Shown here: piece by piece, positions 46,441 through 64,000 of the stretch
Numbering within the stretch: position 1 is the stretch's first letter
Layout of the letters: each line of letters begins with the position of its first letter
Assembly: GCA_040219065.1 (NCBI GenBank)
Contig: JAVJTD010000267.1
Coordinates: 33-64,032 of the forward strand
DNA length: 64,000 nt
DNA from: Planctomycetota bacterium
GTDB taxonomy: Bacteria > Planctomycetota > OFTM77
Direction of reading: 5' to 3'
Program-made: the position numbers and the translations under genes
The notes under the pieces: model-generated
The model's input: the letters and a program-made list of their open reading frames with translations, nothing else
Databases searched by the model: none
Told to the model about the DNA's origin: nothing

Positions 46441-46450
46441 GCCCGACCTG

Positions 46451-46695
46451 ATGGAACCACGGAGTCACGAGCTTCCAGCGAAGCTTGCCGATCGTTTCAC
46501 GAAGCCTTTCTCACGCTTCCTCAAGGTCGAAGCCGCAAACGGGTTACTGCTTGCCGTGGGGCGACGGCCGCGTCGCTGATCGTATCGAACTCACCTTGGT
46601 CGCGGCCGTTCTCAAGCTTTTGGGAAACGCCGTTGGGACTGTCGTGGGGTGTCCTCGATTTCACTCGCCCGCTGCGGCATTGGATCAACGACGCG
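46451..46695 (+). pseudogene. nhaA: Na+/H+ antiporter NhaA N-terminal fragment
   Basis: [16 protein letters not shown] | SLIVSNSPW...FWETP...LRHWINDA; frameshifted and truncated. Confidence 0.8.
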
Positions 46696-47723: not shown

Positions 47724-47771
47724 GATGCTCTGCGACGCCCGCTCCGGATCCGAGAGCGGCCGGGGCAATCC

Positions 47772-48527: not shown

Positions 48528-49012
48528 TCCAAATCTCCGTAACCGAGCCCCGAGCGAGCTTGGCCGGGCCTCATGGAATGACCGTGCGACGCTCGTCGAC
48601 TGGCAGACGGTCTCCTCGGGCTGACTGGCACAAGAGTCGGAGTATACCGAGACCGGTGTCGGCGCTCCAAGCGCGTCGCGATGAACGCTGTGTGGCTCAA
48701 ATCAGGCGCGCCTCCGCGGCGCCCGGAGCATGCAGGAATGAAACGATCGGAGCCCCACTCGCGACCTTGTTGCCAACCCATACCACAGAGCCCCCGCCAA
48801 GGCACGGAAATCATGCGATCCCGCGGGGTTGGGTGCGGCGAGCGTGAACAGGTGGAGGCCATCCGCGGGACGACCCGACACGGGGCCGTGTCCGGGGCGT
48901 GGTGGGCCTGAAGAGCCGGCCGTTGGGGTCTGGGGCCGGATGGCGGGTGGTGGCCGGCGTGGGGCGAACACGGGCCGACAGGCAGGAGCGCCGCATTGGC
49001 CGACGCCCCGGG

Positions 49013-50776
49013 TCACTCGCCCACCGATGCATCAATGAAGTAGCTGTCGTTCATCGCAGGGTGCGGCTGAAAGCGCTCGGTGATGATGACGATCCGCCCG
49101 ACGTCCTTCGGCAGATTCTCGATGCGGTCGAGCGCGGCGTTCACCCGATTGCATTGGTCGGCGTCCAAGTAGAACCGATGCTCATCCAGCCAGCTGCGCG
49201 GCTTGTGGTAGTCGTCGAGCGTGGCAGCTTCCAGTGCTTCTACTGCCGCAGCAATGGCGTCGCGCGGAATGCGCGGTCGCAGCACAGGTATGACGTCGAC
49301 GGTACGGTCATCCGACACCACGACTGCAAGCCGAGGCGTCTCGGTCGACCCAACATAGCGTACCCCGGAATTGTAACGCGAACCTCGAGATGGCGTGCAC
49401 TCCGGACGTGCCGGACCATCCAAGATCACGCCGATCGCGTGGCAGGTGCACTGGGGATCGACGATGATCGTCCCATCGATGCCACTGACGCGCTCGTAGA
49501 GCTCGGGCGTTAGCTTCGTGGGTTCAACCTTTGTGCCCTGACCACCGAGACGCTCGGCTTCGGCCGCAGCGTCCTCGGCAACGACGACCATGCTGCCGTG
49601 CCTCTGGCCGACAGCAGTCTCGAACACCGCGAGGAAGTCCGCCACGGCTTGCTCCCCCGCTGATGGGAAGAGCCTTTGGTATGTGTCCTTGAGCACGTCA
49701 CGCGGAAACGGTTCTTGGGGAAGAGACGGAGATCCATAGCGACTGACGAGCAGAACCTCGTCACCGCACGACAGGCGCCAGTGGTAGTGGTCGAGAAACT
49801 CGATTTCGAAGACGTTCTGAGTGGCCCAGGGGTCGATGCCCTCCGCGATGGTCCCGAGTCCAAGAACCTTCTCGCAGTCCGCGATGAGCGCCGTCTCCGA
49901 CGATGCCATCTGAAGCACCTTGCGCGACCAGCGTGGTTCTCGAAAGGGGACGGGCTCTGCGAGCTCGAGCAACATGTCCACGGATCCGCCGTCCGGTTTC
50001 GCCAGCAGCATGCGACCCGTACCCTCCGTCCCTTCGTACATCAGGGAAGAGATCAGGTTGAACCGCTCGAACAGATTCGGACTGCCGTAGTTCCGATCGC
50101 CGATCGCCAAGCCCGGGCTGTACATGAAGGACGCGGCCGCCAAGCGGACGATCTCCTCAGCTGATCGAGAACGGCCCGCCAGGGAGCGCCCTGGCTCAGG
50201 TCGCAATAGCTCATCGTGCGCCTCGCTCAGTACCTGCGAGACGGACGCGTGAATCAAGCTCGGCGATCCCGTGAAGCGACCATCTGACACAGGCTCCCGA
50301 AGCGGACGGAATCGTTCAAACAGGTCCGTGGGGATCTGGACTACTGGCACGACGTAGTAGTCGCCGACCGGTGCGGGCCCGCCCGCGAACGACTGTACTT
50401 GGTTCTCGCGATCGTAGGCAGCCAGTGCAGCCTCAACTGCCCGCCGCACAGAGTCGCGACGAATATTCTCCGGCTTGTCGCGCATGCTCGGCTCGTCGCC
50501 GTAATACATGTTCTGCAACGGATGATTTGCGACCTGCGCCTCGACCGCCTCCAGCAGACCCGAGAATAGTCGGATCGGCCACTTTCCGTCCTCCGGCTCG
50601 ACGCACACATCGTTCGGGTTCGTCCGGTCCGGAATGCGAGCACCGACAAGAAGGCACTCGGCGCCGCCTACCGCGACACCAAGTTCCTTGAGCACGTTGT
50701 TCATTCGAAGCTCAACGTCGATCCTGTAGTGCGGTTGGTACCCCCACATGAAGAGCGTGATCGTGTGCCCGGCCAT
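49013..50776 (-). CDS. large diadenylate cyclase-like protein (C-terminal DisA_N/DAC domain, long N-terminal sensor region)
   Basis: QRHGSMVVV, IDGTIIVD...AIGVILDG, RGSRYNS, VVVSDD.TVD are variant DGA/RHR DAC motifs; YEG..G.G in the N-terminal region. Confidence 0.82.
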   Translation of the reverse strand: MAGHTITLFMWGYQPHYRIDVELRMNNVLKELGVAVGGAECLLVGARIPDRTNPNDVCVEPEDGKWPIRLFSGLLEAVEAQVANHPLQNMYYGDEPSMRDKPENIRRDSVRRAVEAALAAYDRENQVQSFAGGPAPVGDYYVVPVVQIPTDLFERFRPLREPVSDGRFTGSPSLIHASVSQVLSEAHDELLRPEPGRSLAGRSRSAEEIVRLAAASFMYSPGLAIGDRNYGSPNLFERFNLISSLMYEGTEGTGRMLLAKPDGGSVDMLLELAEPVPFREPRWSRKVLQMASSETALIADCEKVLGLGTIAEGIDPWATQNVFEIEFLDHYHWRLSCGDEVLLVSRYGSPSLPQEPFPRDVLKDTYQRLFPSAGEQAVADFLAVFETAVGQRHGSMVVVAEDAAAEAERLGGQGTKVEPTKLTPELYERVSGIDGTIIVDPQCTCHAIGVILDGPARPECTPSRGSRYNSGVRYVGSTETPRLAVVVSDDRTVDVIPVLRPRIPRDAIAAAVEALEAATLDDYHKPRSWLDEHRFYLDADQCNRVNAALDRIENLPKDVGRIVIITERFQPHPAMNDSYFIDASVGE

Positions 50777-50779
50777 TTC

Positions 50780-51424
50780 TCACCCCTTGCCGGTCTCGGC
50801 GCTGCCGTCGAAGGTCCGGGCGGCTTCGTCGAAGCTGGAACAGATCGTCTTCCGATGGCCCGATGTCTCAAGCTCCCCTCGACTGTTCCGGTCGGTCCAG
50901 TAGTGCCCTTTCAGGCGAGCAACCGGGTCGCCCTCAACCTCAAGCAACAGTCCCCCGTAGTGAATCTGACTGCGGTCGCGAACCTGGAGCTTGGGCTCAT
51001 TGCGGTAGATGGCGTAGACACGATAGGTGCCGTCCGGGGCTTCGACGACATCGGTGCCAAGAACCTCGGACGAGGACTCCTTGGTCAGTAATCGGAGGCT
51101 TAGGCGCGAGAAGGACTGCCGGGCTACCAGGTAGGCATCGATGGCCTCGGAAACCTCTCCGGTCTCGGGGTCTTTCCATTCCGAGCGCAGTCGAGTCCTC
51201 CACGTCCCGCGCAGCAGTGGTCGCTTCACGAACCACCCGTGAAGAAAGCGGAGGCGCCACAACCAGAGGTCAAAGGCCAGCAGGAGCAACAAGAGCGCGC
51301 CGATCACGAGCGAGAAAGGGCGCATCCACGCAGCGCTAAGGGACACCCCTTCGAGCACGAGCATTGCGGCCCAGAGCGCGACGGCAATGCCGATGATGAC
51401 GGAAAGATGAAGCCTCGAGATCAT
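50780..51424 (-). CDS. cap15: Cap15-like 2TM + beta-barrel CBASS effector (S-2TMbeta)
   Basis: two N-terminal TM helices, FD.WLWR, P.LRGTW...L.SEW, RQ.FS.LS..L.T.ES.S, Y.NEP.......H.G, G.YWTDR.SRG. Confidence 0.85.
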   Translation of the reverse strand: MISRLHLSVIIGIAVALWAAMLVLEGVSLSAAWMRPFSLVIGALLLLLLAFDLWLWRLRFLHGWFVKRPLLRGTWRTRLRSEWKDPETGEVSEAIDAYLVARQSFSRLSLRLLTKESSSEVLGTDVVEAPDGTYRVYAIYRNEPKLQVRDRSQIHYGGLLLEVEGDPVARLKGHYWTDRNSRGELETSGHRKTICSSFDEAARTFDGSAETGKG

Positions 51425-51427
51425 TGG

Positions 51428-51532
51428 CTACTCCAGCTCGCAGTATCCCCACGCCGCGACGACGAAGGCGTGCGCATCTACGCGTGTCCAGGGCTGCGAC
51501 GCCCTGAAGAGGTACTTGAGTTCGTTGACCTC
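51428..51532 (-). pseudogene. C-terminal 34 aa of a CD-NTase (cGAS/DncV-like, CdnE-type)
   Basis: EVNELKYLFRASQPWTRVDAHAFVVAAWGYCELE*; stop 3 nt before the cap15 ATG; upstream sequence is replaced by the esterase gene. Confidence 0.7.
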
Positions 51533-51934
51533 TCAGAAGCGGCAGACCATCGCCACCGCGTGCAGCGCGCCGATCGACGCGCCGGCCGTCCAGATGGGCA
51601 GGGTGTCCGTGCGGCAATCCGCGTAGATCGCGGGGACCACCTCGTGGCGCACGTACTGCTGGAACTGGTTCATGACCCACATGCGGTGGCCGAGGTCGCC
51701 CTCTTGCGCGAACCACGCCTGACCCGCCACCGAATCACAGGAGTAGATCTTGACGCGCCCCGCCCCCAGCAGCGGCGCCAGCGCTCGGATCATCTGCCAG
51801 CGCTCGATCTCCTCGGAGTCGCCGCCCGCGGTGGGGAAGACGAGGACCGGCACGCCGAAGTGACCCCAGCGGCTGAGGCGCACCTCGCGCTTCACCCGGT
51901 GGCTGTACCAGGTGGACGTCTCGTGAAGGCTCAC
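51533..51934 (-). pseudogene. alpha/beta-hydrolase (esterase), 3'-truncated at the junction
   Basis: RWGHFGVPVLVFPTAGGD..E, GASIGA nucleophile elbow; ends at VCRF* shortly after the elbow, without the downstream Asp/His. Confidence 0.8.
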
Positions 51935-53172
51935 GCCGGGGACCCCTCTTCGGCGCGCCACTTCTGGATGCGGCCCCAGAACAGCTCGGTGAACGAGTCG
52001 CGCTCGTGCTCCGGGTAGAGCGCCTCGACCTTCCGGCGCACCGCCCGCTTCGCGTCGTCGGTCCCGAAGTAGGCGTACGCCTCCTCGTCCAGGTGGGCGA
52101 GGTGCGTGGCGCAGAACTCCTCGAAGCGCTCCGTCTCGAAGCGGTCGGCCGCGATCTCGGCGTAGCGCGCGAGCTTCTCCGGGTAGGGCGCGTCCTCGTT
52201 CGCGATGGCGTAGTAGGCGTCCCAGTCGAGCGTGCGCCGCATCGGCCGGCCGGTCACCGCGCAGTAGACGCTCCAGCGCAGCAGCGACTTCACGAGCCAG
52301 GGGAAGTGGTAGTGGAGCGACGTGACCTGTGAGTCCGGGCAGGCGTTGGCGAAGTCGATGGGGTGCCAGACGCCCTCGCTCCGCATCAGCTCGCAGCTGT
52401 TGAACTCCCAGCCGAAGAAGCTGTTGATGGTCATCGTCGTGTCCCGGATCTCCGCCTCCTCGGCGGCGGTCAAGAACGCGGTGTCCATCGTGTAGCGGTC
52501 GTGCAGCGGCGCCGTCAGGTCGTACTTCACGAAGCGCGTCTGCGGGCCGATGCCGACGCAGCGCACGAACATGTCGTGCGGGTGTACGGCCTTCTGGGCG
52601 TGCATGACGAGGCTGCCGCTCGACTCGTACGCGCGCCGGAGCGCCGCCTCGTCCTCCGCCCGCGTGACCGCGCGCCAGCCGCCGCCGTCGTAGGGCTTGA
52701 GGATCACCGGGTAGCCCAGCTCCTTGCCGACGCGGCCGACGTCGAAGAGCTTCGCGTAGCGCTGGAGCGTGTCGCGCAGGTCCGGGAGCGGCTCGTAGGA
52801 CTTCGGCGGGAGCATCCACGTCTCGGGGATGGCCATGCCGAGCTTCATCATCGCGCAGTAGGTCGTCTGCTTCTCCATCGACTGGAGCGACCAGGGGTTG
52901 TTGAGGACGTAGAGGTCGTCCATCAACACGGCTTTCTTTATCCACTCCCGGCTCGTGTGGTACCAGTGCGTCAGCCGGTCTATGACCACGGCGTAGCTGC
53001 ACGGCTGGCTCAGGTCGAAGGGCTCGATCGAGACCCGCTCGACCTCGAGCTGGACCCGGTCGCCGTCCACGGGGATCGACAGCGCGAGCCGCCGGAGGAG
53101 GTCCTCGTAGCAGAGGGGCCAGCAGAGGTCGGCTCCCAGCGAGAGCCCGATCTTCTTCGTCACGTTCGGCAT
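51931..53172 (-). CDS. ATP-grasp family protein
   Basis: VIDRLTHWY, LNNPW, GYPVILKPYDGGGW, NSCE, IDFANACPD. Confidence 0.88.
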   Translation of the reverse strand: MPNVTKKIGLSLGADLCWPLCYEDLLRRLALSIPVDGDRVQLEVERVSIEPFDLSQPCSYAVVIDRLTHWYHTSREWIKKAVLMDDLYVLNNPWSLQSMEKQTTYCAMMKLGMAIPETWMLPPKSYEPLPDLRDTLQRYAKLFDVGRVGKELGYPVILKPYDGGGWRAVTRAEDEAALRRAYESSGSLVMHAQKAVHPHDMFVRCVGIGPQTRFVKYDLTAPLHDRYTMDTAFLTAAEEAEIRDTTMTINSFFGWEFNSCELMRSEGVWHPIDFANACPDSQVTSLHYHFPWLVKSLLRWSVYCAVTGRPMRRTLDWDAYYAIANEDAPYPEKLARYAEIAADRFETERFEEFCATHLAHLDEEAYAYFGTDDAKRAVRRKVEALYPEHERDSFTELFWGRIQKWRAEEGSPA

Positions 53173-53179
53173 GCGTCTC

Positions 53180-54328
53180 TCACTCGTAGACCATCAAGAG
53201 CGGTCCGGGGAAGAGCCACGAGAGCCCGTCCTGCAGTCGATCCCGCCAGTTTTCCCAGTTGTGACCGTCGCGCGCCTCTTCGAAGCGCACCTCCATGCCG
53301 CTCTCGCTCAGGAGCGGCACCAGCGAGCGGTTCTCGTAGATCAGCGACTCGTACACGCCGCAGCTCAGGAACACGCGCTCGCTCATCGGGCCGATGTCCT
53401 TGCGGAGCTCGTTCACGAACGCGACCACGGGGTCGAAGAGCGGGCCGCGCCGGTTCCCGCCGCCGATGTCCGTGAAGGCGAACGAGCCCGACTGCAGCAT
53501 CAGCCGGCCGAAGAAGCCCGGGTAGCGCCACGCGGTCGAGAGCGCGGCGACCGCGCCGAAGCTCGCCCCCATGAGGCAGCGCCCCTGCGGCCTCGCGTCG
53601 AGCGGGAGCGTGCGCTCGAGGTGCGGGACGAGCTCCTCCTTGAGGAAGCGCGCGTGCGCCTCGTCGCTCGCGTACTCCTTGAGGCGGTCGGGCGAGTCGC
53701 TGAAGCAGACCACCATGTCCGGGATGGCCAGGCGGTGGATCAGGTTGTCGAGCACCGTCTTCATCGCCGCGTAGCGGAGGTAGTCGCTGCCGTCGTGCAC
53801 CACGAGGAGCGGGTAGCGGCGCGAGGTGCGGTAGCGCGCCGGGTAGTAGAGGTGGCCGCCGCGCACGCCGCCGAAGACCCGGCTCTTCATGCGGAAGGGC
53901 TCGAGCACGCCGGCCCGCGCCTCCGGATCCGTCTGCGTCCAGGCGGGGACCTCGTAGCCCTCGCCGTGCGCGACGGAGTTCGCACCGAAGGGATCGTGCG
54001 CGCGCTTGTCGTTCAGCGGGTCCTCGACCCACCAGCTGTTGCCGTCCTTGCGGAGCTCGAGCTTGTACTCGACCCGCGAGTGCGGCGGCAGCTCGACGAT
54101 CCCGTAGAAGAGGTCGGTCTCCGGCACGCGCGTCAGCGCCTGCGAGGACTCGAGGCCGTAGATCCAGTGCCGCAGGTTCACGCCCTCGACGTCGCCCCGG
54201 AAGACGAACGTGACGCTCGCGCCTTCGACGACCGGGAACTCGCGCCCCTTCAGGAACGCGTCGATCTTCTCGCCCGTCACGGGCGCGTCGGCGAGGAGCC
54301 GATGGATGGCGAGCCGCTCGCCGGTCAC
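53180..54328 (-). CDS. Fes-like esterase with N-terminal Ig/CBM48-like domain
   Basis: VTFVFRG, RVEYK, DPLN, YPLLVVHDG.DY, GASFGA, QSGSF, DGHNWENW; GTG start at 54328. Confidence 0.88.
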   Translation of the reverse strand: MTGERLAIHRLLADAPVTGEKIDAFLKGREFPVVEGASVTFVFRGDVEGVNLRHWIYGLESSQALTRVPETDLFYGIVELPPHSRVEYKLELRKDGNSWWVEDPLNDKRAHDPFGANSVAHGEGYEVPAWTQTDPEARAGVLEPFRMKSRVFGGVRGGHLYYPARYRTSRRYPLLVVHDGSDYLRYAAMKTVLDNLIHRLAIPDMVVCFSDSPDRLKEYASDEAHARFLKEELVPHLERTLPLDARPQGRCLMGASFGAVAALSTAWRYPGFFGRLMLQSGSFAFTDIGGGNRRGPLFDPVVAFVNELRKDIGPMSERVFLSCGVYESLIYENRSLVPLLSESGMEVRFEEARDGHNWENWRDRLQDGLSWLFPGPLLMVYE

Positions 54329-55251
54329 GCTGCCTCCGCGTCCGCGACGGCGCCGTCTGCGTGGAGGGTCAGGGCGCGTTGGCTCTCGACCAGGGCGCCC
54401 GCCTCGAAGAGCACCCAGCTGCGGCGCGGCAGGACCATGCAGGTCGCGGGCGCGAAGCGCTGCGCGTACATCGCCATCCGCTCGGCGTCGTCCAGCGCGA
54501 GCCGGGCCTCCGGGTTCGGCAGCGCCACGACGTCCGACACAAGCCCGAGGCCGGGCTCGAGCACCTGCGGTGCGTCCACCCCGTAGGGAGGGTCGTCGTG
54601 GAAGAGCACGATGCGCTCGGTGACGGCCATCGCGCCCGCCGACCAGGCGAAGACCGGGCGCTCCCCGATGAGGTCCGTCACGCCGAAGAGCTGCAACCGG
54701 TTGAGCAGCGACGCGACGTGCCCGCCCGCGATCGCGACCGCGTCGCAGCCCTCGAGCAGCCGCGCGAGCTCCGCCCGGTGCCAGGCGACGCGACCTCGCG
54801 CGTGCGGCGCCCACTCCTTCTGGAACTCCGTCCGCACGCGCTCGCACTGACGGAGATGGTGCTTATCGAGCACGCGAATCCCGTTGACCGACCACTCCTG
54901 CTCCTGCGCGAGCAGCTCGGTGGGGGCGGCGCGGTGCGCGATCACCCGCGCGGACTCGATCAGGTGCTCGAGCCGGATGCGGTAGAAGTCCTGGAGCTGG
55001 CGGAAGCGGAGCTGGCGCGCGCGGTAGGCCCCGCGCAGCTCGCCGTCGCTCCGGAAGACGTCGTCGGCCCGCTCGTGCAGCGCGAGGTTCACCGTGCGGC
55101 CGCCGAGGTGCTCGGACAGCTCGTCGTCCTCCCGCTCGCGCTCCTGCCAGCCGGCGGTGATCAGCGCGAAGCGCCCGGTGACGCCGGCCGCCTTCGCCGC
55201 CTCGGCCACGCTGGGGTCGAAGCGCTGCGGTCCGAGTAGCGCGACCTTCAC
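54325..55251 (-). CDS. peptidase E / cyanophycinase-like (S51, GAT-1 fold) protein
   Basis: LITAGWQERE, IAGGHV..L, AWSAGAM nucleophile motif, GLGL. Confidence 0.75.
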   Translation of the reverse strand: MKVALLGPQRFDPSVAEAAKAAGVTGRFALITAGWQEREREDDELSEHLGGRTVNLALHERADDVFRSDGELRGAYRARQLRFRQLQDFYRIRLEHLIESARVIAHRAAPTELLAQEQEWSVNGIRVLDKHHLRQCERVRTEFQKEWAPHARGRVAWHRAELARLLEGCDAVAIAGGHVASLLNRLQLFGVTDLIGERPVFAWSAGAMAVTERIVLFHDDPPYGVDAPQVLEPGLGLVSDVVALPNPEARLALDDAERMAMYAQRFAPATCMVLPRRSWVLFEAGALVESQRALTLHADGAVADAEAA

Positions 55252-55276
55252 GTCGCCTCCGGGTCGGGTACCGAGC

Positions 55277-56500
55277 TCATCGAGCGCGAACCTGCACCGT
55301 CTGGCCGACCGCGTCCAGGATGCGGCGCAGGGTGTCGTAGTCCGGGTGGCGGAAGCGCATCCACGCGTTGGCCATGTAGCCGGCCTCGACGGGCTGGGTC
55401 GGCGTCCCCGCGGGCGGCAGGTGCGCGTCGATCAGGTGCTCACCGAAGTTTCGCTGGACCTCTTCGAGCCCGTCGTAGTGATCGATGACGCCGTCCCGGT
55501 CCGGGCGGAGCGCGATGATGCCCGCCGCGTAGCGTCGCGAGGGCTTGGAGCCGGGCCGGCCGTGCACGACGGCCATCGCCCACTCGCGGTAGAGGTCCAT
55601 CTCGTTGCCCGCGCTGTAGAGGTCCCACGCGCCGACGCCCGGCGGGCGGCAGCCGATCTCGCTGAAGCGCAGGCCCTTGGGCCCGAAGAACCACTCCATG
55701 TGCGTGGCGCTCGTGCCGATGTCGAGCGCCTCGATGACCCGGCGGCCCATCGCGCGCACCTCTTCGTACCCCGGCGCGCTCTCCACGCGGTTGGTGGTGA
55801 TGAACTGCGGCGAGATCCAGCGCGTGCGCATCGCCTCGAGCACGTTCGGGTAGTAGTGGCAGACGAACTCGTGCACGACGCGGCCGTCGACCGTGACGGT
55901 GTCGTAGAAGCCCTCGTGCCCCTCGACGAACTCCTCGATCGCGACCGACGCGCCGCGGCCGAGGCCGCTCTTCTGCATCGCCGCCTCGAGCTCCGCGTCG
56001 TCGTCCACGCGGAAGGTGCCCGCCGCGCCCGCGCCGTCGCGGGGCTTGAGGATGAGCGGGTAGCCGACCCGGGCCGCGAAGGCGCGCGCCTCGTCGGGGG
56101 AGCCGGTCCCCGTCGACGCCGCGCAGGGGACGCCGGCCTGGCGGAGCACCTCCTTCATGGAGGGCTTGTCGCGGCACAGGAACGCCGTCTTCGCGCTCGT
56201 GCCCGGGATCCCGCAGCGCTCGCGCACCTGCGCCGCGGTCTGGATGTGGGCCTCGACCGTCGCCTCGAGCCGCTCGGGGTGGCTGATCGACTGGACGAAG
56301 CGCACCGCCTTCTCGAGCGCCGCCTCGTCGCACACGTTCGAGACCTGCTCGTAGTGCGTGAGCCAGTGCCGCAGGCTGTCGTCGAGCGCCTCCTTGGGGC
56401 GCTCGCCGATGCCGATCACGCGCGCGCCCACCGAGTGCAGCGCCCGCGCGAACTCACGCTGGTTCCGGGGAAAGCACGGCTCGACGAGGATGACGTCCAT
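55277..56500 (-). CDS. ATP-grasp family protein
   Basis: CRDKPSMK, GYPLILKPRDGAGA, IEEFVEG.E, THMEWF, FSEIGCRPPG. Confidence 0.92.
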   Translation of the reverse strand: MDVILVEPCFPRNQREFARALHSVGARVIGIGERPKEALDDSLRHWLTHYEQVSNVCDEAALEKAVRFVQSISHPERLEATVEAHIQTAAQVRERCGIPGTSAKTAFLCRDKPSMKEVLRQAGVPCAASTGTGSPDEARAFAARVGYPLILKPRDGAGAAGTFRVDDDAELEAAMQKSGLGRGASVAIEEFVEGHEGFYDTVTVDGRVVHEFVCHYYPNVLEAMRTRWISPQFITTNRVESAPGYEEVRAMGRRVIEALDIGTSATHMEWFFGPKGLRFSEIGCRPPGVGAWDLYSAGNEMDLYREWAMAVVHGRPGSKPSRRYAAGIIALRPDRDGVIDHYDGLEEVQRNFGEHLIDAHLPPAGTPTQPVEAGYMANAWMRFRHPDYDTLRRILDAVGQTVQVRAR

Positions 56501-57951
56501 CAGAGCTCCCTCACGCGCTCATAGAGCTCCTCGTAGGTGCGGACCCGCCGCTCCCACGAGAAGTCCTGCGCCATGGCGTTGTCCTGGAGTCGGCGCCAGA
56601 GCGGCCGGTTCCGGTAGGTGCGCAGCGCCTGGTCGAGCGCCCAGCCCAGGCCCTGCGCGTCGAAGTGCTCGAAGACGAAGCCCGTGCCCTCGCCCGTGCG
56701 CGCGTCGAAGGGGCGCACGCTGTCCTTGAGCCCGCCCGTGGCGCGCACGATGGGCGCGGTGCCGTAGGCGAGGCTGTAGAGCTGGTTCAGACCGCACGGC
56801 TCGAAGCGCGAGGGCATCAAGAACATGTCCGAGCCCGCCTCGATGAGGTGCGCCAGCTCGTTCGAGAAGCCGCGGTAGAAGCAGACCTGGTGGGGGAAGC
56901 GGTGCTGGAGCTGCGAGAACGCGTTCTCGTAGTGCGTCGCGCCCGAGCCGAGCACGACCAGCTGCATGCGCCCGCGGGCCAGGAAGTGCGGGGCCACCTC
57001 GAGGATGAGCTCGAGCCCCTTCTGCGCCGTCAGCCGGGTGACCACGCCCGCGAGCGGCAGCCCGGTGTGATAGGGCAGGCCCACGCTCTCGAGGAGCGCC
57101 TTCTTGCAACGCTCCTTGCCGTCGAGATCCCCGCGTGAGAAGCGGTGCGGGATGAGCGGATCGGTCGCCGGATCCCACTCGGTGGGGTCGATCCCGTTCA
57201 GGACGCCCACCACCGTGCTCGCCCGCTCGCGGAGCAGCCCGTCGAGGCCCATGCCGAGCTCGGGGGACTGGATCTCCTTCGCGTAGGTGGGGCTGACGGT
57301 GGTGATCGCGTCGGCGTAGAGGATGCCCGTGGTGAGCAGGCTGATCGCGCCCGCGCTGAGCTGATCCTGGTGGAAGAGGTGCGCGCTGTCCGCGAGGCCG
57401 GTGTCGGGCAGGACGTGCGCGCCGAACGCGCCCTGGTGGGCGAGGTTGTGGATCGTCAGGACCGTCTTGGTGCGCCCGAAGATCGCCCCGTCCCAGTCGT
57501 AGCGGCAGCGCAGCGCGAGCGGCAACAGCGCGGTCTGCCAGTCGTGCACGTGGGCGATGTCGGGCGCGAAGCCGAGCCGCTGACACGCGGTCAGCGCGGC
57601 GTAGGTCAACACGATGAAGCGCAGGTGCTCGTCTGGGTCCTGCGTGTAGATCCCGTCGCGCCCGTACAGCGCGTCGCAGCGCACGAAGCAGACCTGGACC
57701 TCCGAGTTGGGCAGCGGCGCGCGGTGCAGCGAGACGCGGACCTCGTGCGGGCCGAGCGACAGCCGCAGATCCTGGGCGCCGGGGATGGGCGTGGTCTCCA
57801 CCGTCTCGCGCACGCGACGGTAGAGCGGCGCCACCAGCAGCACGTCGTGGCCGCGGCGCGCGAGGTGGCGCGGCAGCGCGGCCGAGACGTCGGCGAGGCC
57901 GCCGGTCTTGGCGAAGGGGGCGACCTCCGATGCAGCGTAGAGGATCTTCAC
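56500..57951 (-). CDS. glgA: glycogen synthase (GT5)
   Basis: SEVAPFAKTGGLADV, HVHDWQT, TIHNLAHQG, TVSPTYA.EI, LNGID, RLTAQKG, PSRFEPCGLNQ, TGGLKDSV; GTG start at 57951. Confidence 0.95.
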   Translation of the reverse strand: MKILYAASEVAPFAKTGGLADVSAALPRHLARRGHDVLLVAPLYRRVRETVETTPIPGAQDLRLSLGPHEVRVSLHRAPLPNSEVQVCFVRCDALYGRDGIYTQDPDEHLRFIVLTYAALTACQRLGFAPDIAHVHDWQTALLPLALRCRYDWDGAIFGRTKTVLTIHNLAHQGAFGAHVLPDTGLADSAHLFHQDQLSAGAISLLTTGILYADAITTVSPTYAKEIQSPELGMGLDGLLRERASTVVGVLNGIDPTEWDPATDPLIPHRFSRGDLDGKERCKKALLESVGLPYHTGLPLAGVVTRLTAQKGLELILEVAPHFLARGRMQLVVLGSGATHYENAFSQLQHRFPHQVCFYRGFSNELAHLIEAGSDMFLMPSRFEPCGLNQLYSLAYGTAPIVRATGGLKDSVRPFDARTGEGTGFVFEHFDAQGLGWALDQALRTYRNRPLWRRLQDNAMAQDFSWERRVRTYEELYERVREL

Positions 57952-57959
57952 GTGTCGGC

Positions 57960-59186
57960 TCAGGCGTATCGTACGCGAACGGCGTCGATGACGGCGCGCA
58001 TCGCGTCCTCGACCACCGAGGTCTCGGGGTGGCGCACGATGACGTGGCCGTCGCCCTCGTAGCTGTCGGACTTGGGGGCGCCGATGGTGGGCACCTTCGC
58101 CTCGACCACCAGGTCCCCGATGGCGCGGTGCACCGCGTCCAGCCCCTCCACGCCGAGCACCCGCCCGCGCCCGATCCCGCGCAAGAACGCCGAGCCGCTC
58201 GCGTAGCGTCGCTCGAAGGGGCCGTCGAAGGCCTCGTCGATCACCGCGCGCGCCCACGCGCGGTACATGCTGGTGTCGTGCGCGAGCCCGGTCAGCCGCA
58301 CGATGTTGGCCCCGGGCGGGCGCGCCGCGATCTCCCCGATCGCGAGCGACCCGTCCTCGCGGCGGAACCACTCCATGTGCGTCATGCCGCTGCCGAGCCC
58401 GAGCGCCTTCACGGCGCGCTTCGCCAGCGCGGCCGCCTCCTGCACGCCCGGACCGTCCAGCTCGCGCGGGGCGATGACCGCCCACTGGATCCAGTCGTTC
58501 TCGACCACCTCGAGCGGCGTCGGGTGGTACTCGGTGCTCGAGAACATCCGCACCTCGCCCTTGACCGTGATGGTCTCCAGGCTGTGCTCGCGGCCGCGCA
58601 GGAATTCCTCGGCCAGGACCGGGTCCTCGCTCCGCGGCTGGAGCGCCTCGAGCGCGGCGCGCGCCTGCTCGATCGACTCGATGCGCCACGTCGCCTTGCA
58701 GGCCATGCCGGCCGGCGGCTTCAGCACGATCGGGAAGCCGACCTCGTCGAGGAACGCGCCCGCGTCCTCCCAGGAGCGCAGGAGCCGGTGCCGCGCCGTG
58801 GGCAGGCCCGCCGCCCGCAGGGCGTCCTTCATCATCGCCTTGTCGCGGAAGAGCGCCGCCGTCTTCTCGTCCGTGCCGCTCACCCCGAAGTGCGCCCGGA
58901 GCTTGGCCAGCTCCACCTGCATCGGCTCGAGGATCCCGAGGATGCGGTCGGGCCGCCCGTGCTTCGCGGCGAGCCGCTCGATGGCGCCCGCGAGCTGACC
59001 GAGATCCATGGGGTTGTCGACCCGCGCCATGTCGTGGAACAGCCCGGAGTCCGCGCCACCGGGGGCCGTGTGCACGACGCCGAGGAGGCGACCACGCCCT
59101 CCGTCTTCGGAGAGCAGCGCCTTGCTCGCGCGCACGAAGCGCAGCGTGGTCTCGGCGGGGAAGGGGGCGATGAAGATGACGTTCAT
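57960..59186 (-). CDS. ATP-grasp family protein
   Basis: FRDKAMMK, GFPIVLKPPAG, AEEFLRG.E, THMEWF, GEIAARPPG. Confidence 0.92.
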   Translation of the reverse strand: MNVIFIAPFPAETTLRFVRASKALLSEDGGRGRLLGVVHTAPGGADSGLFHDMARVDNPMDLGQLAGAIERLAAKHGRPDRILGILEPMQVELAKLRAHFGVSGTDEKTAALFRDKAMMKDALRAAGLPTARHRLLRSWEDAGAFLDEVGFPIVLKPPAGMACKATWRIESIEQARAALEALQPRSEDPVLAEEFLRGREHSLETITVKGEVRMFSSTEYHPTPLEVVENDWIQWAVIAPRELDGPGVQEAAALAKRAVKALGLGSGMTHMEWFRREDGSLAIGEIAARPPGANIVRLTGLAHDTSMYRAWARAVIDEAFDGPFERRYASGSAFLRGIGRGRVLGVEGLDAVHRAIGDLVVEAKVPTIGAPKSDSYEGDGHVIVRHPETSVVEDAMRAVIDAVRVRYA

Positions 59187-59491
59187 GGCGGAGTGGGCGC
59201 CGCTCTACCCCAGCGCGGCGCCGCCGCAAAGCGGCCAGCGTGACGGAGCGCGCACCCGTGCCCCCACGCTCACGACGCGGACGCGGCACGGCTTGCCGAG
59301 CATCAGCGCGCTCGGGTCGGGGCCGCGAGCTGGCGTGCGCACGACCGGGAGGTCGGCCGGACCTTCCTGGGAGCGCGCCGTTCGCCGCGGCCCTCGGCGC
59401 GCGGCTCAGCGTCGCTCCTCGTCGGAGTGCTTCGAGTATTCCTCGTCGTCGCTGCTCGATTCGAAACGCCGATGCCTCGCGGCGACTCGGT

Positions 59492-59518
59492 CATCTCCCC
59501 CATCTCCCCCATCTCCCC
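59492..59518. repeat. 3 x 9-bp tandem repeat CATCTCCCC
   Basis: exact triple copy; reads GGGGAGATG on the minus strand. Confidence 0.8.
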
Positions 59519-59555
59519 TTCGGCGAGGTACCAGCGAATCGCCGGGCGCGTGCGG

Positions 59556-60677
59556 CTACGTGGGCGCGAGCAGTGCGGCGAGCGCGAACCCGAGGCCCGC
59601 GCCCACCGTGATGAGCGCGGCCGCGAGCCAGACGAGCGAGCGGGTCGACGGCGCGGCCGGAGCCGGAGCGGGGGGCACCGAGGGGTGGCGCGGACGAACG
59701 GCCGCCTCCACGAGGCGGCGCTGTTCGGCCAGCTCGTTGCCGAACATGTTCGAGAGGTGATCTTCGAGCGAGATCGGACCCTCGCTCGCGGCCAGCTCGC
59801 TGACCAGCGCGTCGAGGCGCCGGGCGACGTTGGCCGCCGTCGGCGGGCGCTCATCGGGGGTGAAGGCGAGGAGCTCCGCGAGCAGGACCTCGAGGCTCGG
59901 CGGCACGTCCGGGCGCACATCCCGGATCCGGACCGGCTCGGCGCGGTGCATGACCGCGACCGCGCGCGCGATGCCGTCTTCGCCCTCGAAGGGGTGCTGG
60001 CCGCTGAGCAGCTCGTGCAGGACGACGCCGAGCGAGAAGAGGTCACTGCGCCGGTCGAGCGGCTGGTTGGCCACCTGCTCGGGCGACATGTAGGAGTAGC
60101 GGCCCTTCCGGACGCCGATCGCCGTCGCCGTGAACCGCCGCTTGGCCTTGGCGACCCCGAAGTCGAGGAGCCTGACGCGGCCGTCGACGCCGACGAGGAC
60201 GTTGGGCGGCGCGAGGTCGCGATGGACGAGCCCGAGCGGCTCGCCGTCGACGTCGCGGGCCTCGTGCGCGGCGTGGAGCCCGTGCGCCACCTGCGCCGCG
60301 ATGGTCGCGCAGAGCTGGGCGGGCAGGGCCTCTCGCGTCCCGTCGATCACGGCGCGCAGGTCGAGCCCTTCGACGAAGTCCATCGCGATGAAGGGGCCGT
60401 TGGCGTCGCAGCCCGTGTCCCGGACCGCCACCACGTTCTCGTGGTGGATGCGGCTGGCCAGGCGGGCTTCGTCGAGGAACATGTCCATCCGTCCGGGGTC
60501 GCTCGCCTCGCTCGGATGAAGCCGCTTCACCGCATAGAGTTGCCCGTCAGGCGGGCGAATCGCGAGCTCGATGACGCCGAAGCCCCCGTGGGCCAGCAAG
60601 GCCAGGCGACGGAACGAAGCGTCGATGGCGGTGGACTCCTCGAGGTGGCTGCTCTTGGTGGTGAGGTCCGGGTTCAT
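59556..60677 (-). CDS. Hanks-type Ser/Thr protein kinase with C-terminal TM helix
   Basis: LAHGGFG, YAVKRL, VHRDLAPPNVL, DFGVAK, YMSPEQ, SDLFSLG. Confidence 0.93.
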   Translation of the reverse strand: MNPDLTTKSSHLEESTAIDASFRRLALLAHGGFGVIELAIRPPDGQLYAVKRLHPSEASDPGRMDMFLDEARLASRIHHENVVAVRDTGCDANGPFIAMDFVEGLDLRAVIDGTREALPAQLCATIAAQVAHGLHAAHEARDVDGEPLGLVHRDLAPPNVLVGVDGRVRLLDFGVAKAKRRFTATAIGVRKGRYSYMSPEQVANQPLDRRSDLFSLGVVLHELLSGQHPFEGEDGIARAVAVMHRAEPVRIRDVRPDVPPSLEVLLAELLAFTPDERPPTAANVARRLDALVSELAASEGPISLEDHLSNMFGNELAEQRRLVEAAVRPRHPSVPPAPAPAAPSTRSLVWLAAALITVGAGLGFALAALLAPT

Positions 60678-60822
60678 GCTCTCTCCGAGCGGCCCAGGGC
60701 GCGGCGTTCGGCCACATTTGCAGGCCCCGAGGCGCGGCGTCAACGCCGGGCTGCGGCGCGTCGCGACGGTGCTACGCTTGGCCGATCGCCAACATCCCTC
60801 GACCCGCCAGCGGTTGGAGCTC

Positions 60823-62532
60823 ATGCGCGTACCTGAAGTGTTGTGGTCGCTGACCGACCAAGGCGTCATCGACGAGGTCGTCCGTCCCCTCAAGAGCGGC
60901 AAGGAGGCCCAGGTCTACCTCGTGCGCGCCGGCGGCGACGTGCGGGTGGCCAAGGTCTACAAGGACGCGAGCGAGCGCTCGTTCAAGCAGCGCGCCCAGT
61001 ACTCGGAGGGTCGTCGGGTCCGCAACACGCGCGACCAGCGGGCCATCGACCGGCGCAGCCGCCACGGCCGAGCGCAGGAGGAGCAGGCCTGGAAGTCGGC
61101 CGAGGTCGACGTGATCCACCGGCTCCACGCGCAGGGTGTGCGCGTCCCCGCCCCGTGGAACTTCATCGACGGGGTGCTGATCATGGAGCTCGTCCGCGGC
61201 GACGACGGATACCCCGCGCCGCGGCTGGCGGAGCTCGACCTCGACGCCCAGACGGCCACCGCGTACTTCGAGCGCCTGCTCCGCGAGGTCGTCAAGATGC
61301 TGTGCGCGGGAATCGTGCACGGCGACCTCTCGGACTACAACATCCTCGTCGACGCGGACGGGCCGGTGGTCATCGACTTCCCGCAGTCGGTCGACGCGGC
61401 GCAGAACCGCAACGCCAAGAAGCTGCTGATCCGCGACGTGGACAACCTCTCGGCGTTCCTCTCGCGCTTCTCGCCGAGCGCCCGCCGTCGGCCGTACGGG
61501 GAGGAGCTCTGGGCCGCCTACGAGAGCAACACGCTCACCCCGGACCTCGAGCTCACGGGCCGCTTCCAGCGCTCGTCGGCGCCGGTCGACATGCGCGGCA
61601 TCCTCTCGCAGATCGAGGACGCCGACGAAGACGAGCGGCGTCGCCGTGAGAAGGTCGGCGGGCAGCCGCAGCGCAAGCGCGAGGTCGTGATGACGGCGCC
61701 GCAGCCCGAGGGCGGCCGCGGACGCCGCCGCTCGGGTGGCGCGGGCGGGGCGCCCAACGAGCGCGCCGCGCGGAGCGGAGACCCGCGCCGCCGCGACGCC
61801 CGCGCCGGAGACGGCCGCAGCCGCAGCGACGGCGACGCCCGGGCTCGTGGCGGGGACACCCGCGATGGCGATCCCCGGAGCCGCAACGGCGACGGGCGCG
61901 GCCGTGACGCACGCAACGGCGACGCCCGGAGCCGTCACGGAGACGGGCGCAACGGCGAGGCTCGGAGCCGGAGCGGAGACGGGCGCAACAGCGAGGCTCG
62001 GAGCCGGAGCGGCGATGCGCGCCGCGACGACGCGCGCAGCCGTGACGGCCGGAGCCGCGATGGCGACGCGCGGCGCGACGACGCACGCGGTCGCGACGGC
62101 GACGCGCGCCGCGACGTGCGCAGCCGTGACGGTGGGAGCCGCGATGGCGACGCGCGCCATGGCGACGTCCGCGGTCGCGACGGCGAAGGGCGCCGCGGCG
62201 ACGCGCGCAGCCGTGACGGTGGGAGCCGCGATGGCGACGCGCGCCATGGCGACGCCCGCGGTCGCGACGGCGACGCGCGGAGCCGCAGCGCTGAGGGGCG
62301 CGGCCACGACTCGCAGCGCCCGGAGGAGGGCGCGCCTCCGAAGCGCCGCCGCCGCCGCCGCCGTAGCGGGGACCCGAAGCCGGACGAAGGTCGCCAGCCG
62401 CAGTCGCAGCAGCCTCCGCAGCAGAACGGTGCGAGGGAAGCCCCGCGGTCGGGCGCCGAGGACGGAGCGCCGAAGCGTCGTCGCCGTCGCCGCCGTCGCC
62501 GCAAGTCCCCCGCGCCCCTCTCGGGCGGCTGA
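60823..62532 (+). CDS. RIO1-like protein kinase with long Arg/Asp/Gly repetitive tail
   Basis: LKSGKEAQVY, AKVYK, VHGDLSDYNIL, VIDFPQ; tail of RDGDAR repeats and poly-Arg runs. Confidence 0.92.
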   Translation: MRVPEVLWSLTDQGVIDEVVRPLKSGKEAQVYLVRAGGDVRVAKVYKDASERSFKQRAQYSEGRRVRNTRDQRAIDRRSRHGRAQEEQAWKSAEVDVIHRLHAQGVRVPAPWNFIDGVLIMELVRGDDGYPAPRLAELDLDAQTATAYFERLLREVVKMLCAGIVHGDLSDYNILVDADGPVVIDFPQSVDAAQNRNAKKLLIRDVDNLSAFLSRFSPSARRRPYGEELWAAYESNTLTPDLELTGRFQRSSAPVDMRGILSQIEDADEDERRRREKVGGQPQRKREVVMTAPQPEGGRGRRRSGGAGGAPNERAARSGDPRRRDARAGDGRSRSDGDARARGGDTRDGDPRSRNGDGRGRDARNGDARSRHGDGRNGEARSRSGDGRNSEARSRSGDARRDDARSRDGRSRDGDARRDDARGRDGDARRDVRSRDGGSRDGDARHGDVRGRDGEGRRGDARSRDGGSRDGDARHGDARGRDGDARSRSAEGRGHDSQRPEEGAPPKRRRRRRRSGDPKPDEGRQPQSQQPPQQNGAREAPRSGAEDGAPKRRRRRRRRRKSPAPLSGG

Positions 62533-62594
62533 GTCGGCCCGCGGCGCGTCGTTTCCCGTCACGGAGCTGCGCCGATCGGGGTAAGCTCGTCGTC

Positions 62595-63812: not shown

Positions 63813-63860
63813 CCGGGCTCGAAGCTCCCGCGGCCTCCGCGTCTGCTGCCGACTCGGCAT

Positions 63861-64000
63861 CCGCTGCCGCTGCCGCTTCCGCTTCCGCTGCCGCTGCCGC
63901 TGCCGCTGCCGAGTTCGGAGCCGCTCCCGAGTCCGCCTCCGCTCCCGCTCCCGCTCCCGCTCCCGCTCCCGCTCCCGCTCCCGCTCCCGCTCCCGCTCCC
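63861..64000. repeat. 6-bp simple-sequence repeat (CCGCTG/CCGCTC)n running off the window end
   Basis: direct tandem hexamers. Confidence 0.9.

Follow-up and report, generated by a model that had tools for sequence, protein, structure and literature searches.

The minus-strand run at 51533-59186 of the window (the whole stretch of DNA analysed, 64,000 nt) holds seven genes that, together with a fourth ATP-grasp ligase gene close by, form one conserved cytoplasmic module around its own glycogen-synthase paralog. Gene position, co-occurrence across genomes and phylogeny each tie the module to alpha-glucan genes. Such an operon, recurring with a GlgA branch of its own, points to a so far undescribed partner or chemical modification of the glucose store, and the literature search found no published description of the module. 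The product favoured here, tentatively and with somewhat less than even confidence, is a dedicated alpha-glucan to which the module would reversibly attach aminoacyl or peptidyl groups. We know of no aminoacylated alpha-glucan.

Gene content and boundaries of the operon

Based on the ORF listing and translations, the minus-strand genes run in the order AG_A (ATP-grasp A; 57960-59186, 408 aa), glgA (56500-57951, 483 aa, GTG start), AG_B (ATP-grasp B; 55277-56500, 407 aa), an S51-like serine hydrolase (54325-55251, 308 aa), EstN (53180-54328, 382 aa), AG_C (ATP-grasp C; 51931-53172, 413 aa) and Est2 (51533-51934). From AG_A to Est2 the junctions are an 8 nt gap, a 1 nt overlap (the AG_B start with the glgA stop), a 25 nt gap, a 4 nt overlap, a 7 nt gap and a 4 nt overlap. 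The ORF coordinates thus confirmed the order described in the initial annotation, with every gap or overlap at or below 25 nt. Within the operon neither a gene for a carrier protein nor a small conserved ORF was present, and its products look cytoplasmic when the N-termini are judged by eye. The nearby fourth paralog that had also been reported is AG_D (62634-63812, plus strand), a module member with a PF13535 match of 29.5 bits that shares 36-38% identity with AG_A and AG_B. It adjoins AG_A in many loci and lies immediately upstream of the S51-like gene in L057, L072 and L087.

The family calls made in the initial annotation (ATP-grasp, S51-like, and an Ig/CBM48-like domain with a Fes-type esterase) were supported by Pfam and by AF2/Foldseek. 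AG_A, the first gene of the operon, and AG_B matched PF02222 (53 and 34.9 bits). Their best solved sequence relatives were L-amino-acid ligases (RizA, 4wd3; BL00235, 3vot; BacD) at E ~1e-17; 4wd3, named 'L-amino acid ligase', was the best for AG_A at 2.5e-17 and matched AG_B at 3.6e-17. The Pfam scan gave no match for the divergent AG_C, which carries a C-terminal helical domain. Its AF2 model (pLDDT 87.6) showed an ATP-grasp fold, for which Foldseek ranked RimK (5zk6) top at 1.9e-10, then ArgX/LysX and Ddl, the E-values being modest and alike for many ATP-grasp enzymes. Identity between the module ligases and L-amino-acid or RimK/LysX-type ligases was low, and LAL_C2 reached only 16.7-16.8 bits (cut-off 29.4). 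For ATP-grasp enzymes, chemistry via an acyl phosphate is expected. To our knowledge, no characterised L-amino-acid or RimK/LysX-type ligase adjoins a glycogen synthase, and the literature search returned no paper placing one there.

The S51-like protein scored 21.6 bits against PF03575, under the 23.9 cut-off; 13 of 16 relatives matched this family at E≤0.01, and the GGHVA and AWSAGAMA motifs are kept. EstN consists of an N-terminal E-set (Enterochelin_N/CBM48-like) domain and a PF00756 esterase (75.3 bits) with conserved GASFG and DGHNW motifs. Its AF2 model (pLDDT 87.9) matched CBM48+CE1 feruloyl esterases at E ~1e-22 and Fes with a TM score of 0.71. The N-domain gave weak hits to Enterochelin_N (32/32), CBM_20 (17/32) and CBM_48 (9/32). 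The proposed CBM48-like/Ig-like fold was recovered, but the domain scores best against the N-domain of enterochelin esterase, which is no glucan-acting or glucan-binding enzyme, and the fold by itself is therefore no demonstration of glucan binding.

Est2 is a 133-codon 5' fragment of a PF00756 esterase of ~245 aa. It ends just beyond the GASIG motif and aligns solely to residues 1-134 of full-length relatives; the remaining half was absent from the entire assembly. A complete gene was present in all 29 relatives having sufficient downstream DNA, and all seven full-length relatives matched PF00756 (24.9-44.6 bits). The initial annotation had taken this final esterase as an operon member but had missed its truncation at a suspect assembly junction. 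At this junction, 51535/51536, the composition shifts (GC 0.635 at 44001-51532 versus 0.709 at 51533-59186; genome 0.653) and identity to public contigs ends. Because contigs ~99% identical to the window agree with it from 51536 rightwards and diverge on the left (4/4 runs), the border reflects either chimeric assembly or a rearrangement specific to the strain. Searches of the window by tblastn with glgC, glgB, glgX-like and phosphorylase queries were empty, in agreement with the reported lack of glgC, glgB and glgP, and the bin containing the window had no glgC above the cut-off. The absent glgC may reflect merely a chimeric contig.

Conservation and linkage to glycogen genes

The neighbourhood survey drew on public genomes and metagenomes (up to 80+80 loci), the genome set being 80 loci anchored on the S51-like gene. 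This type of operon was seen in no fewer than four bacterial phyla, and identities among module loci were 42-92%. Such recurrence places the arrangement beyond chance. The closest relative (82-92% aa identity) has the identical seven-gene order, and AG_B is 63-78% identical across phyla. Among S51-anchored genome loci with at least 4.5 kb of downstream DNA, EstN was present in 53/53 and AG_C in 52/53; of the 58 loci whose upstream DNA reached 4.5 kb or more, 18 had an AG_A homologue.

Conservation of the glgA linkage in relatives had been set beforehand as the point on which the original proposal, a peptide or acyl group that would be attached to or removed from an alpha-glucan, could fail. 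It did not fail there: the linkage was seen in records whose titles name Myxococcota, Planctomycetota and Acidobacteriota, and the linked copies form a clade of their own (see below). In loci with both flanks complete, glgA was no more than 10 kb from the S51-like gene in 16/35, and any glycogen gene (glgA, glgC, glgB, glgX-like or phosphorylase) lay in that range in 19/35. Of the 33 loci with both AG_B and glgA, 24 had the two genes separated by less than 300 bp, in either orientation. Polymer-acting genes (glgX-like, phosphorylase, glgB) occurred in eight loci, and in L085 the genes of the module are interspersed with phosphorylase, glgX-like, GH13, glgA and glgC. Nearby glgA was absent from 19/35 fully flanked genome loci and from 16/20 AG_C-anchored metagenome loci, and a compact marine variant (EstN, AG_C, Est2, AG_B) has neither S51 nor glgA nearby. 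Recurrent extra neighbours were a GCS2-like ligase with CBS domains (22/80 loci) and AstE/AspA and FGase hydrolases.

Co-occurrence was examined in two phylum-wide genome samples, one per phylum. In the first, S51-positive genomes carried glgA in 45/47 and glgC in 44/47 cases, compared with 160/254 of the others for each gene; in the second, glgA was present in 15/15 S51-positive genomes versus 69/106 others. Together, 60/62 carriers of the S51-like gene had glgA against 229/360 non-carriers (63-65% in the samples). Within one family (f25), the S51-like gene, glgA and glgC were all found in the same three of ten genomes. In another (f5), one glgA type was present in all seven genomes and an extra type only in the five carriers; in four it adjoined the S51-like gene, and in the fifth it sat at the end of a contig.

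The module glgA product is a GT5 glycogen/starch synthase (TIGR02095, 535.9 bits; cut-off 328.45). A tree of 111 GlgA sequences included 44 linked copies and 38 from S51-negative genomes. One clade of 45 rows (SH-aLRT 100), to which the window's glgA belongs, held 41 of the 44 linked copies plus four from S51-positive genomes, and none of the 38. Many carriers retain a second, ordinary glgA, and those copies cluster with ordinary glgA; in the second sample, 6 of the 15 carriers had no module-clade glgA. Because 46 near-invariant columns are common to module GlgA and other GlgA and a single column is clade-specific, module GlgA is probably an ordinary glucan elongase, judging by sequence.

Candidate products of the module

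For the favoured decorated glucan, module GlgA would make an alpha-1,4-glucan, and the ligases (three L-amino-acid-ligase-like, one RimK/LysX-like) would convert amino-acid carboxylates to acyl phosphates and so add aminoacyl or short peptidyl groups to it, the first bond most likely being an ester to a glucose hydroxyl. Removal would fall to the two PF00756 esterases, one with the E-set/CBM48-like domain, and the S51-like peptidase. The outcome would be a reversible, ATP-paid covalent change to a storage glucan, similar in logic to starch phosphorylation and dephosphorylation. The position, co-occurrence and phylogeny results, the retained GlgA columns and the fold of EstN, which resembles both CBM48+carbohydrate-esterase enzymes and Fes, argue for this; Fes cleaves aminoacyl (seryl) esters. 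Against it stand the closest solved relatives of the ligases, which join amino acids to amino acids or protein C-termini, not sugars, and the enterochelin-esterase affinity of the EstN N-domain. The glgA-free loci, the compact marine variant and the second-sample carriers lacking module-clade glgA also count against it, as do the GCS2-like+CBS, AstE/AspA and FGase neighbours, which fit Glu/Asp peptide chemistry with no glucan required.

These neighbours, which act on Glu/Asp amides, suit a less probable alternative, that the ligases and hydrolases make and degrade an amino-acid polymer or oligopeptide of their own. This nitrogen or Glu/Asp reserve, resembling cyanophycin, would be co-regulated with the glucan and not covalently linked to it. 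Carbon and nitrogen stores would then be laid down together. The S51 family contains cyanophycinase and peptidase E, the AG_C fold resembles RimK, a glutamate polymeriser, AG_A and AG_B are nearest to L-amino-acid ligases, and many loci have no glgA nearby. A separate reserve would, however, leave unexplained the carrier-only GlgA clade, the two esterases in the invariant core and the interleaving with glgP, glgX, glgA and glgC in L085, and no cyanophycin synthetase was found (best score 41.7 bits against cut-offs of 850-877).

It is rather unlikely that module GlgA glucosylates a small ligase-built acceptor. The resulting soluble conjugate of a peptide or amino acid would be an osmolyte or signal, recycled by the hydrolases. 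A dedicated paralog alongside the ordinary copy, the cytoplasmic look of the whole set by its N-termini and a bin without glgC over the cut-off would fit, but the missing glgC may stem merely from a chimeric contig, and glgC is present in 44/47 carriers. The retained GlgA columns and the eight loci with glgX-like, phosphorylase or glgB genes also count against it.

More doubtful still is a RimK/LysX-like addition of amino acids to a protein (GlgA or a granule protein), as a tag on a side chain or the C-terminus, with the hydrolases removing the tag to regulate glucan synthesis. The nearest folds to AG_C, RimK (bound to ribosomal protein S6) and the protein C-terminus enzymes ArgX/LysX, and the 1-nt overlap of glgA and AG_B are consistent with it; the modest, widely shared Foldseek E-values, the lack of a carrier-protein gene or small conserved ORF inside the operon and two carboxyl-esterases with no obvious role are not. 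Finally, a ligase/esterase set unrelated to glucans and only incidentally adjacent to glgA is strongly disfavoured: about half of the loci have no glgA nearby and the gene is common among non-carriers, but chance would give less than ~1% (our estimate for a single-copy gene, a 20-kb neighbourhood and a 3-10 Mb genome) against the 16/35 observed, the co-occurrence, the carrier-only clade and the other linked glycogen genes are left over, and one recently spread mobile element is at odds with the 42-92% identity range and several phylum labels.

Comparison with known systems

Cyanophycin metabolism uses the synthetase CphA, which has an ATP-grasp domain, and the cyanophycinase CphB of peptidase family S51. 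The module likewise pairs ATP-grasp ligases with an S51-type serine hydrolase, in a build-and-break logic suited to a cytoplasmic reserve. It differs in having no CphA and no Mur-ligase-like domain. Its four ligases, encoded separately, its pair of esterases and its glycogen synthase have no counterpart in the cyanophycin system.

The mycobacterial methylglucose lipopolysaccharide pathway combines a dedicated alpha-1,4-glucosyltransferase paralog with acyl decoration of a cytoplasmic glucan. It resembles the module in its second, dedicated glucan synthase and in a small cytoplasmic alpha-glucan with ester-linked groups. That pathway, however, has no ATP-grasp ligases and depends on a GT4 enzyme, methyltransferases and acyl-CoA acyltransferases, which are all absent from the operon.

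In the accessible portion of a 2026 review, phosphate is the sole covalent modification named for storage alpha-glucans. As far as the accessible text describes it, the reversible phosphorylation of starch and glycogen, by glucan water dikinase and the CBM48- or CBM20-bearing phosphatases SEX4/laforin, resembles the proposal in its ATP-paid tag, removed by a hydrolase with a CBM48-like module. None of the 18 window proteins scanned had a dikinase or dual-specificity phosphatase domain, and in place of phosphate the proposed tag would be a peptide or carboxylic ester, making this an analogy, not membership.

EstN shares an Ig-like N-domain and a PF00756 alpha/beta hydrolase with Fes and with CBM48+CE1 feruloyl/acetyl-xylan esterases (2b20, 3mga, 6rzn, 7b5v, 8bf3 and 6ne9; TM 0.6-0.71), at ~20% identity. 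Xylan esterases are secreted, whereas EstN has no signal peptide visible by eye and is thus considered cytoplasmic. EstN has no siderophore genes nearby; its context consists of ligases and glycogen genes.

Gene content and family assignment of the operon

Seven co-directional genes were found on the minus strand at 51533-59186 by ORF listing and inspection of the translations. In the order of transcription, they encode the ATP-grasp ligase AG_A (57960-59186, 408 aa), GlgA (56500-57951, 483 aa, GTG start), a second ATP-grasp ligase, AG_B (55277-56500, 407 aa), a peptidase-E/cyanophycinase-like hydrolase (S51-like; 54325-55251, 308 aa), the esterase EstN (53180-54328, 382 aa), a further ATP-grasp protein, AG_C (51931-53172, 413 aa), and a fragment of a second esterase, Est2 (51533-51934, 133 codons). 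According to the ORF coordinates, neighbouring genes are separated by 8, 25 and 7 nt at the first, third and fifth junctions and overlap by 1, 4 and 4 nt at the second, fourth and sixth; none of these distances exceeds 25 nt, which bears out the tight coupling described in the initial annotation. Judged from the translations, the operon is compact and its products are predicted to be cytoplasmic, soluble enzymes. No glgC, glgB, glgX-like or phosphorylase gene was present within the window, as had been stated for glgC, glgB and glgP.

The ATP-grasp assignments were upheld, AG_A and AG_B matching PF02222 with 53 and 34.9 bits, respectively (cut-off 27). The fourth ligase, AG_D, is encoded on the plus strand at 62634-63812 and matched PF13535 with 29.5 bits (cut-off 27); its 36-38% identity to AG_A and AG_B confirmed it as a true paralog. 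AG_C had no Pfam match and was assigned to the superfamily by the fold of its AlphaFold model (AF2, pLDDT 87.6) together with a glycine-rich loop. The closest folds were RimK, ArgX/LysX and Ddl (E 1e-10 to 1e-8), and the motif K159-P-x-D-G-G-G-W was invariant across 33 sequences. For both AG_A and AG_B, the best PDB relative was an L-amino-acid ligase, and the corresponding LAL_C2 domain was matched at 16.7 and 16.8 bits, below its cut-off of 29.4. Between AG_A and AG_D, at 59556-62532, lie a Ser/Thr kinase gene (59556-60902, minus strand) and a RIO-type kinase gene (60571-62532, plus strand), which overlap by about 330 nt as listed; Ser/Thr kinase genes were also seen near the module in at least six other loci.

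The earlier S51 call stood in part. Of 16 relatives, 13 matched PF03575 at E≤0.01 (best 6e-06), and the GGHVA and AWSAGAMA motifs are conserved in the family. S204 of AWSAGAMA and H218 of F-H-D are nearly invariant, and may be the counterparts of S51 triad residues. The window protein itself scored 21.6 bits against a PF03575 gathering score of 23.9, and a search of the family profile against PDB sequences gave nothing meaningful (best match lysyl-tRNA synthetase, E 0.047). For these two reasons the protein is named S51-like and not an S51 member.

EstN matched PF00756 with 75.3 bits (cut-off 22) and its G-A-S-F-G and D-G-H-N-W motifs showed little or no variation among 32 sequences. An enterochelin-esterase model was matched at 97.6 bits, under that model's cut-off. 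The description of EstN as a CBM48/Ig-like domain joined to a Fes-type esterase was supported by structure prediction: the model (pLDDT 87.9) resembled two-domain CBM48+CE1 feruloyl/acetyl-xylan esterases (E ~1e-22, TM ~0.6) and the enterobactin esterase Fes (TM up to 0.71). The N-terminal domains of the 32 sequences gave weak matches throughout, to Enterochelin_N in 32 (best 1.7e-8), CBM_20 in 17 (best 0.0012) and CBM_48 in 9 (best 2.3e-4). As this domain is a general trait of an esterase subfamily that includes the siderophore esterase, it is by itself no evidence of glucan binding. The seventh gene had also been called an esterase. This holds for the family, since all seven full-length Est2 relatives (~245 aa) matched PF00756 with 24.9-44.6 bits, whereas the copy in the window is a 5' fragment without a Pfam match that halts after 133 codons, just beyond its GASIG motif. 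The missing half was found nowhere in the assembly.

Two known systems could be set apart from the module by gene content. It is not a cyanophycin system as it has no CphA synthetase; the cyanophycin synthetase models reached at best 41.4-41.7 bits against cut-offs of 850-877, and over the ATP-grasp part only. Glucan phosphorylation resembles the module in the idea that a glucan is decorated or dedicated, but its dikinase and phosphatase are missing here, a Pfam scan of 18 window proteins having revealed no glucan water dikinase or dual-specificity phosphatase domain. The mycobacterial methylglucose-lipopolysaccharide pathway, with the same idea in common, is presumably distinct as well. Literature searches (supplements aside) returned nothing on this gene set, which may have been mentioned earlier in comparative genomics.

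Conservation of the module and its association with glucan genes

The four ATP-grasp ligases, two PF00756 esterases, S51-like hydrolase and, often, a dedicated GlgA form a conserved unit. Three independent lines connect this unit with glucan genes, namely position, co-occurrence and a private GlgA lineage.

For position, the S51-like alignment was searched against one genome per species and the best 80 loci of 468 relatives were analysed, with neighbours called by tblastn with the window proteins (E≤1e-8) and a crude ORF filter. The titles of these best 80 records, from which phylum labels were taken, name Myxococcota lineages, Planctomycetota, Acidobacteriota/Thermoanaerobaculia, Eisenbacteria and Bradymonadaceae. 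Among these 80, the 53 loci with at least 4.5 kb downstream held EstN in 53, AG_C in 52 and Est2 in 37, and the 58 with at least 4.5 kb upstream held AG_B in 42, glgA in 29, and AG_A and AG_D in 18 each. Both flanks were complete in 35 of the best 80, and glgA was present in 16 of these, so the reported linkage extends to relatives. In the same set, glgA and AG_B were less than 300 bp apart, in either orientation, in 24 of the 33 loci holding both. Further linked glycogen genes among the best 80 were glgC (5 loci), glgB (1), a CBM48+GH13 glgX-like gene (6) and phosphorylase (3); with these included, 19/35 fully flanked loci and 39/80 overall contained a glycogen gene. At one locus (L085) the module was interleaved with phosphorylase, glgX-like, GH13, glgA and glgC genes. 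Three loci titled Planctomycetota (L057, L072, L087) carried all eight genes as two divergent operons, and the closest relative found (L141; 82-92% protein identity) had the same seven-gene order with an intact Est2. S51, EstN and AG_C also occur in the complete genome behind locus L060.

A second, independent sample consisted of metagenome contigs anchored on AG_C. Of 20 contigs with at least 6.5 kb upstream, 19 had EstN, 15 S51, 14 AG_B and 4 glgA, and full-length Est2 was present in all 29 with at least 3.5 kb downstream. A compact marine variant of four genes, EstN-like (40-45% identity), AG_C, Est2 and AG_B, was seen on six metagenome contigs (L157, L165, L166, L167, L210, L212). Neither an S51-like gene nor glgA was close by, and the variant may represent the minimal core of the module. 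AG_C had no tblastn match to plasmids. In the Atlas, most AG_C-like and S51-like clusters were from Actinomycetota, a phylum outside the counts given here.

For co-occurrence, presence/absence rows were cross-tabulated by eye for 301 genomes of the bin's own phylum (sample 1) and 121 of the phylum of another locus record, L053 (sample 2). No P value is given for these counts because relatedness inflates them. In sample 1, glgA was present in 45/47 carriers of the S51-like gene compared with 160/254 non-carriers, and glgC in 44/47 compared with 160/254. The two carriers without glgA were assemblies of 890 and 1340 contigs, both with glgC. In sample 2, glgA was found in 15/15 carriers and 69/106 non-carriers, with at least two matches in 10/15 carriers compared with 7/69 glgA-bearing non-carriers. 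Within one family (f25), the S51-like gene, glgA and glgC occurred in the same 3 of 10 genomes.

For lineage, the window GlgA scored 535.9 bits against TIGR02095 (GT5 glycogen/starch synthase, a type predicted to use ADP-glucose; cut-off 328.45) and retained the conserved columns. A maximum likelihood tree of 111 glgA sequences (IQ-TREE quick search, LG+G4, SH-aLRT support only, no bootstraps) contained a clade of 45 rows with 100% support, which held 41 of the 44 copies located near an S51-like gene, their record titles coming from three phyla. The other clade rows were four unlinked copies from carrier genomes. The 38 glgA sequences of non-carriers (22 and 16 from the two sampled phyla) all fell outside, and the second glgA copies of carriers grouped with those of non-carriers. 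Three linked copies outside the clade (L050, G053, G381) grouped together, and 6/15 carriers of sample 2 had no clade member. The same division was seen within family f5, where all seven genomes (G004, G070, G095, G239, G255, G173, G207) carried a divergent glgA of 356-408 bits and only the five carriers had an additional, module-type glgA (455-541 bits); in four carriers this copy adjoined the S51-like gene, and in the remaining one it was at the end of a contig.

Proposed function and its alternatives

Bacterial glycogen metabolism is usually seen as a closed set of GlgC, GlgA, GlgB, GlgP, GlgX and the GlgE route. To this set the eight-gene module, conserved in about one sixth or one eighth of genomes in the two sampled phyla, adds ligases and serine hydrolases without an assigned glucan role. 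ATP-grasp enzymes activate carboxylates as acyl phosphates. The module GlgA would make an alpha-1,4-glucan, the ligases would attach amino acids to the glucan and then extend them to a short peptide, and the esterases and S51-like peptidase would take the amino acids or peptide off again. We consider this scheme of synthesis, addition and removal quite possible, if short of probable. More tentatively, several phyla may possess a dedicated second alpha-1,4-glucan, made by a GlgA of its own and reversibly esterified with amino acids or short peptides by the four ligases and stripped by the CBM48-like esterases and S51-like peptidase.

Decoration of a glucan is weighed against by the many loci and some carriers without a module-type glgA, by the nearest relatives of the ligases, which form amide bonds between amino acids, and by the fact that we know of no precedent for an aminoacyl-glucan. 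The first two of these points would suit a separate peptide or polymer of the Glu/Asp type, sharing no more than its regulation with the glucan. When flanking ORFs were clustered, singletons left out, and 24 representatives scanned against Pfam, a GCS2-like carboxylate-amine ligase with two CBS domains was found after Est2 in 22 of the best 80 of 468 loci and in 11 of 29 metagenome contigs, and AstE/AspA-like and FGase-like hydrolases recurred as neighbours. With the private GlgA lineage set beside these neighbours, a separate polymer appears rather unlikely.

A small glucosylated conjugate as the product would likewise involve both ligases and GlgA, and we regard it as improbable. The module clade keeps 46 near-invariant columns common to 59 other GlgA sequences and differs consistently only at Q195; on this basis its members look like working glucan synthases. 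It is very improbable that GlgA or granule proteins are themselves peptide-tagged in the manner of RimK/LysX; the folds closest to AG_C include both enzymes. Prediction of a GlgA and AG_B complex scored 0.00 in both runs, which weighs neither for nor against binding. That the adjacency of glgA is coincidental can hardly be maintained given the association by position, co-occurrence and lineage.

If the ligases do decorate the glucan, this would amount to a novel class of polysaccharide modification, by which carbon and nitrogen reserves could be coupled. It would be a third kind of covalent modification of a storage glucan, after phosphorylation and acylation of the mycobacterial type, and a direct carbon-nitrogen storage conjugate. 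If they do not, the module would still constitute a new peptide-forming pathway kept with a dedicated glucan synthase.

The GCS2-like protein with CBS domains is ~640 aa long, for example at L020 14038-16026, and in 21 further loci. On another contig of the bin (C183; L096 5808-9138), a 50%-identical GCS2-like copy adjoins an AstE/AspA-family hydrolase gene. FGase-family hydrolase genes precede glgA in four loci (L050, L063, L066, L076).

The left border of the operon

The GC content changed from 0.635 (44001-51532) to 0.709 (51533-59186), compared with 0.653 for the genome, and the step coincided with the Est2 stop. Only 5 of 2787 5-kb windows of the assembly reached a GC of 0.70, three of them being this cluster. 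Contigs from four public runs of four studies were aligned to 49000-54400. In all four runs there were contigs of 427 to 19,371 bases whose match to the window began at exactly 51536 and extended to the right, with 0-18 differences, and ~99%-identical contigs ran on to the left of 51536 with sequence unlike the window. Because the public contigs follow the window only rightwards of 51536, the 51535/51536 border probably reflects either a chimeric assembly or a rearrangement specific to the strain, which truncated Est2. In the four runs aligned, 49000-51535 had no contig cover except for scraps of 20-35 bases, and among 19 runs screened the share of words sampled from 50400-52600 never exceeded 0.44, neither of which is proof of absence; an exact 48-mer from the window gave 0 matches to metagenome contigs.

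With such a border, the bin-wide counts may not describe the owner of the operon. These were one glgA only, 22 PSD1 domains, which are presumably associated with Planctomycetota, and no glgC over cut-off. Horizontal transfer into the bin lineage, considered in view of the 22 PSD1 matches, is not claimed as it is indistinguishable from a chimeric contig. Similarly, a same-genus genome without the module and without glgA (G018) was rejected as a sign of joint gain or loss, because a contig whose right end did not belong to the bin would lead one to expect the same just as much.

Directly left of the border, at 49013-51424 on the minus strand, is a two-gene anti-phage pair, and these Cap15-like and DS2_3 defence genes may be from another organism. 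The larger protein (587 aa) matched NCBIfam DS2_3_antiphage with 739 bits, has DACNG and DACNH sensor domains and is not covered by a PADLOC model; the smaller (214 aa) is a Cap15-like 2TM effector (PF18153, 57.6 bits; PADLOC 2TM effector, 257 bits). Adjoining the pair at 47772-48527 (minus strand) is a SAM-dependent methyltransferase gene (PADLOC mad2, mads_2, 75 bits). A 412-aa ORF at 46485-47723 (plus strand) corresponds to the C-terminal part alone of a phosphoketolase (XFP profile positions 55-177 and XFP_C). This stretch gave a long match to G018 (86% over 1 kb), and nothing else in 44001-64000 did. Further left, at 41791-46440 (plus strand), a 1549-aa protein fuses a CheB methylesterase, a CheR methyltransferase, PAS, a histidine kinase and a receiver.
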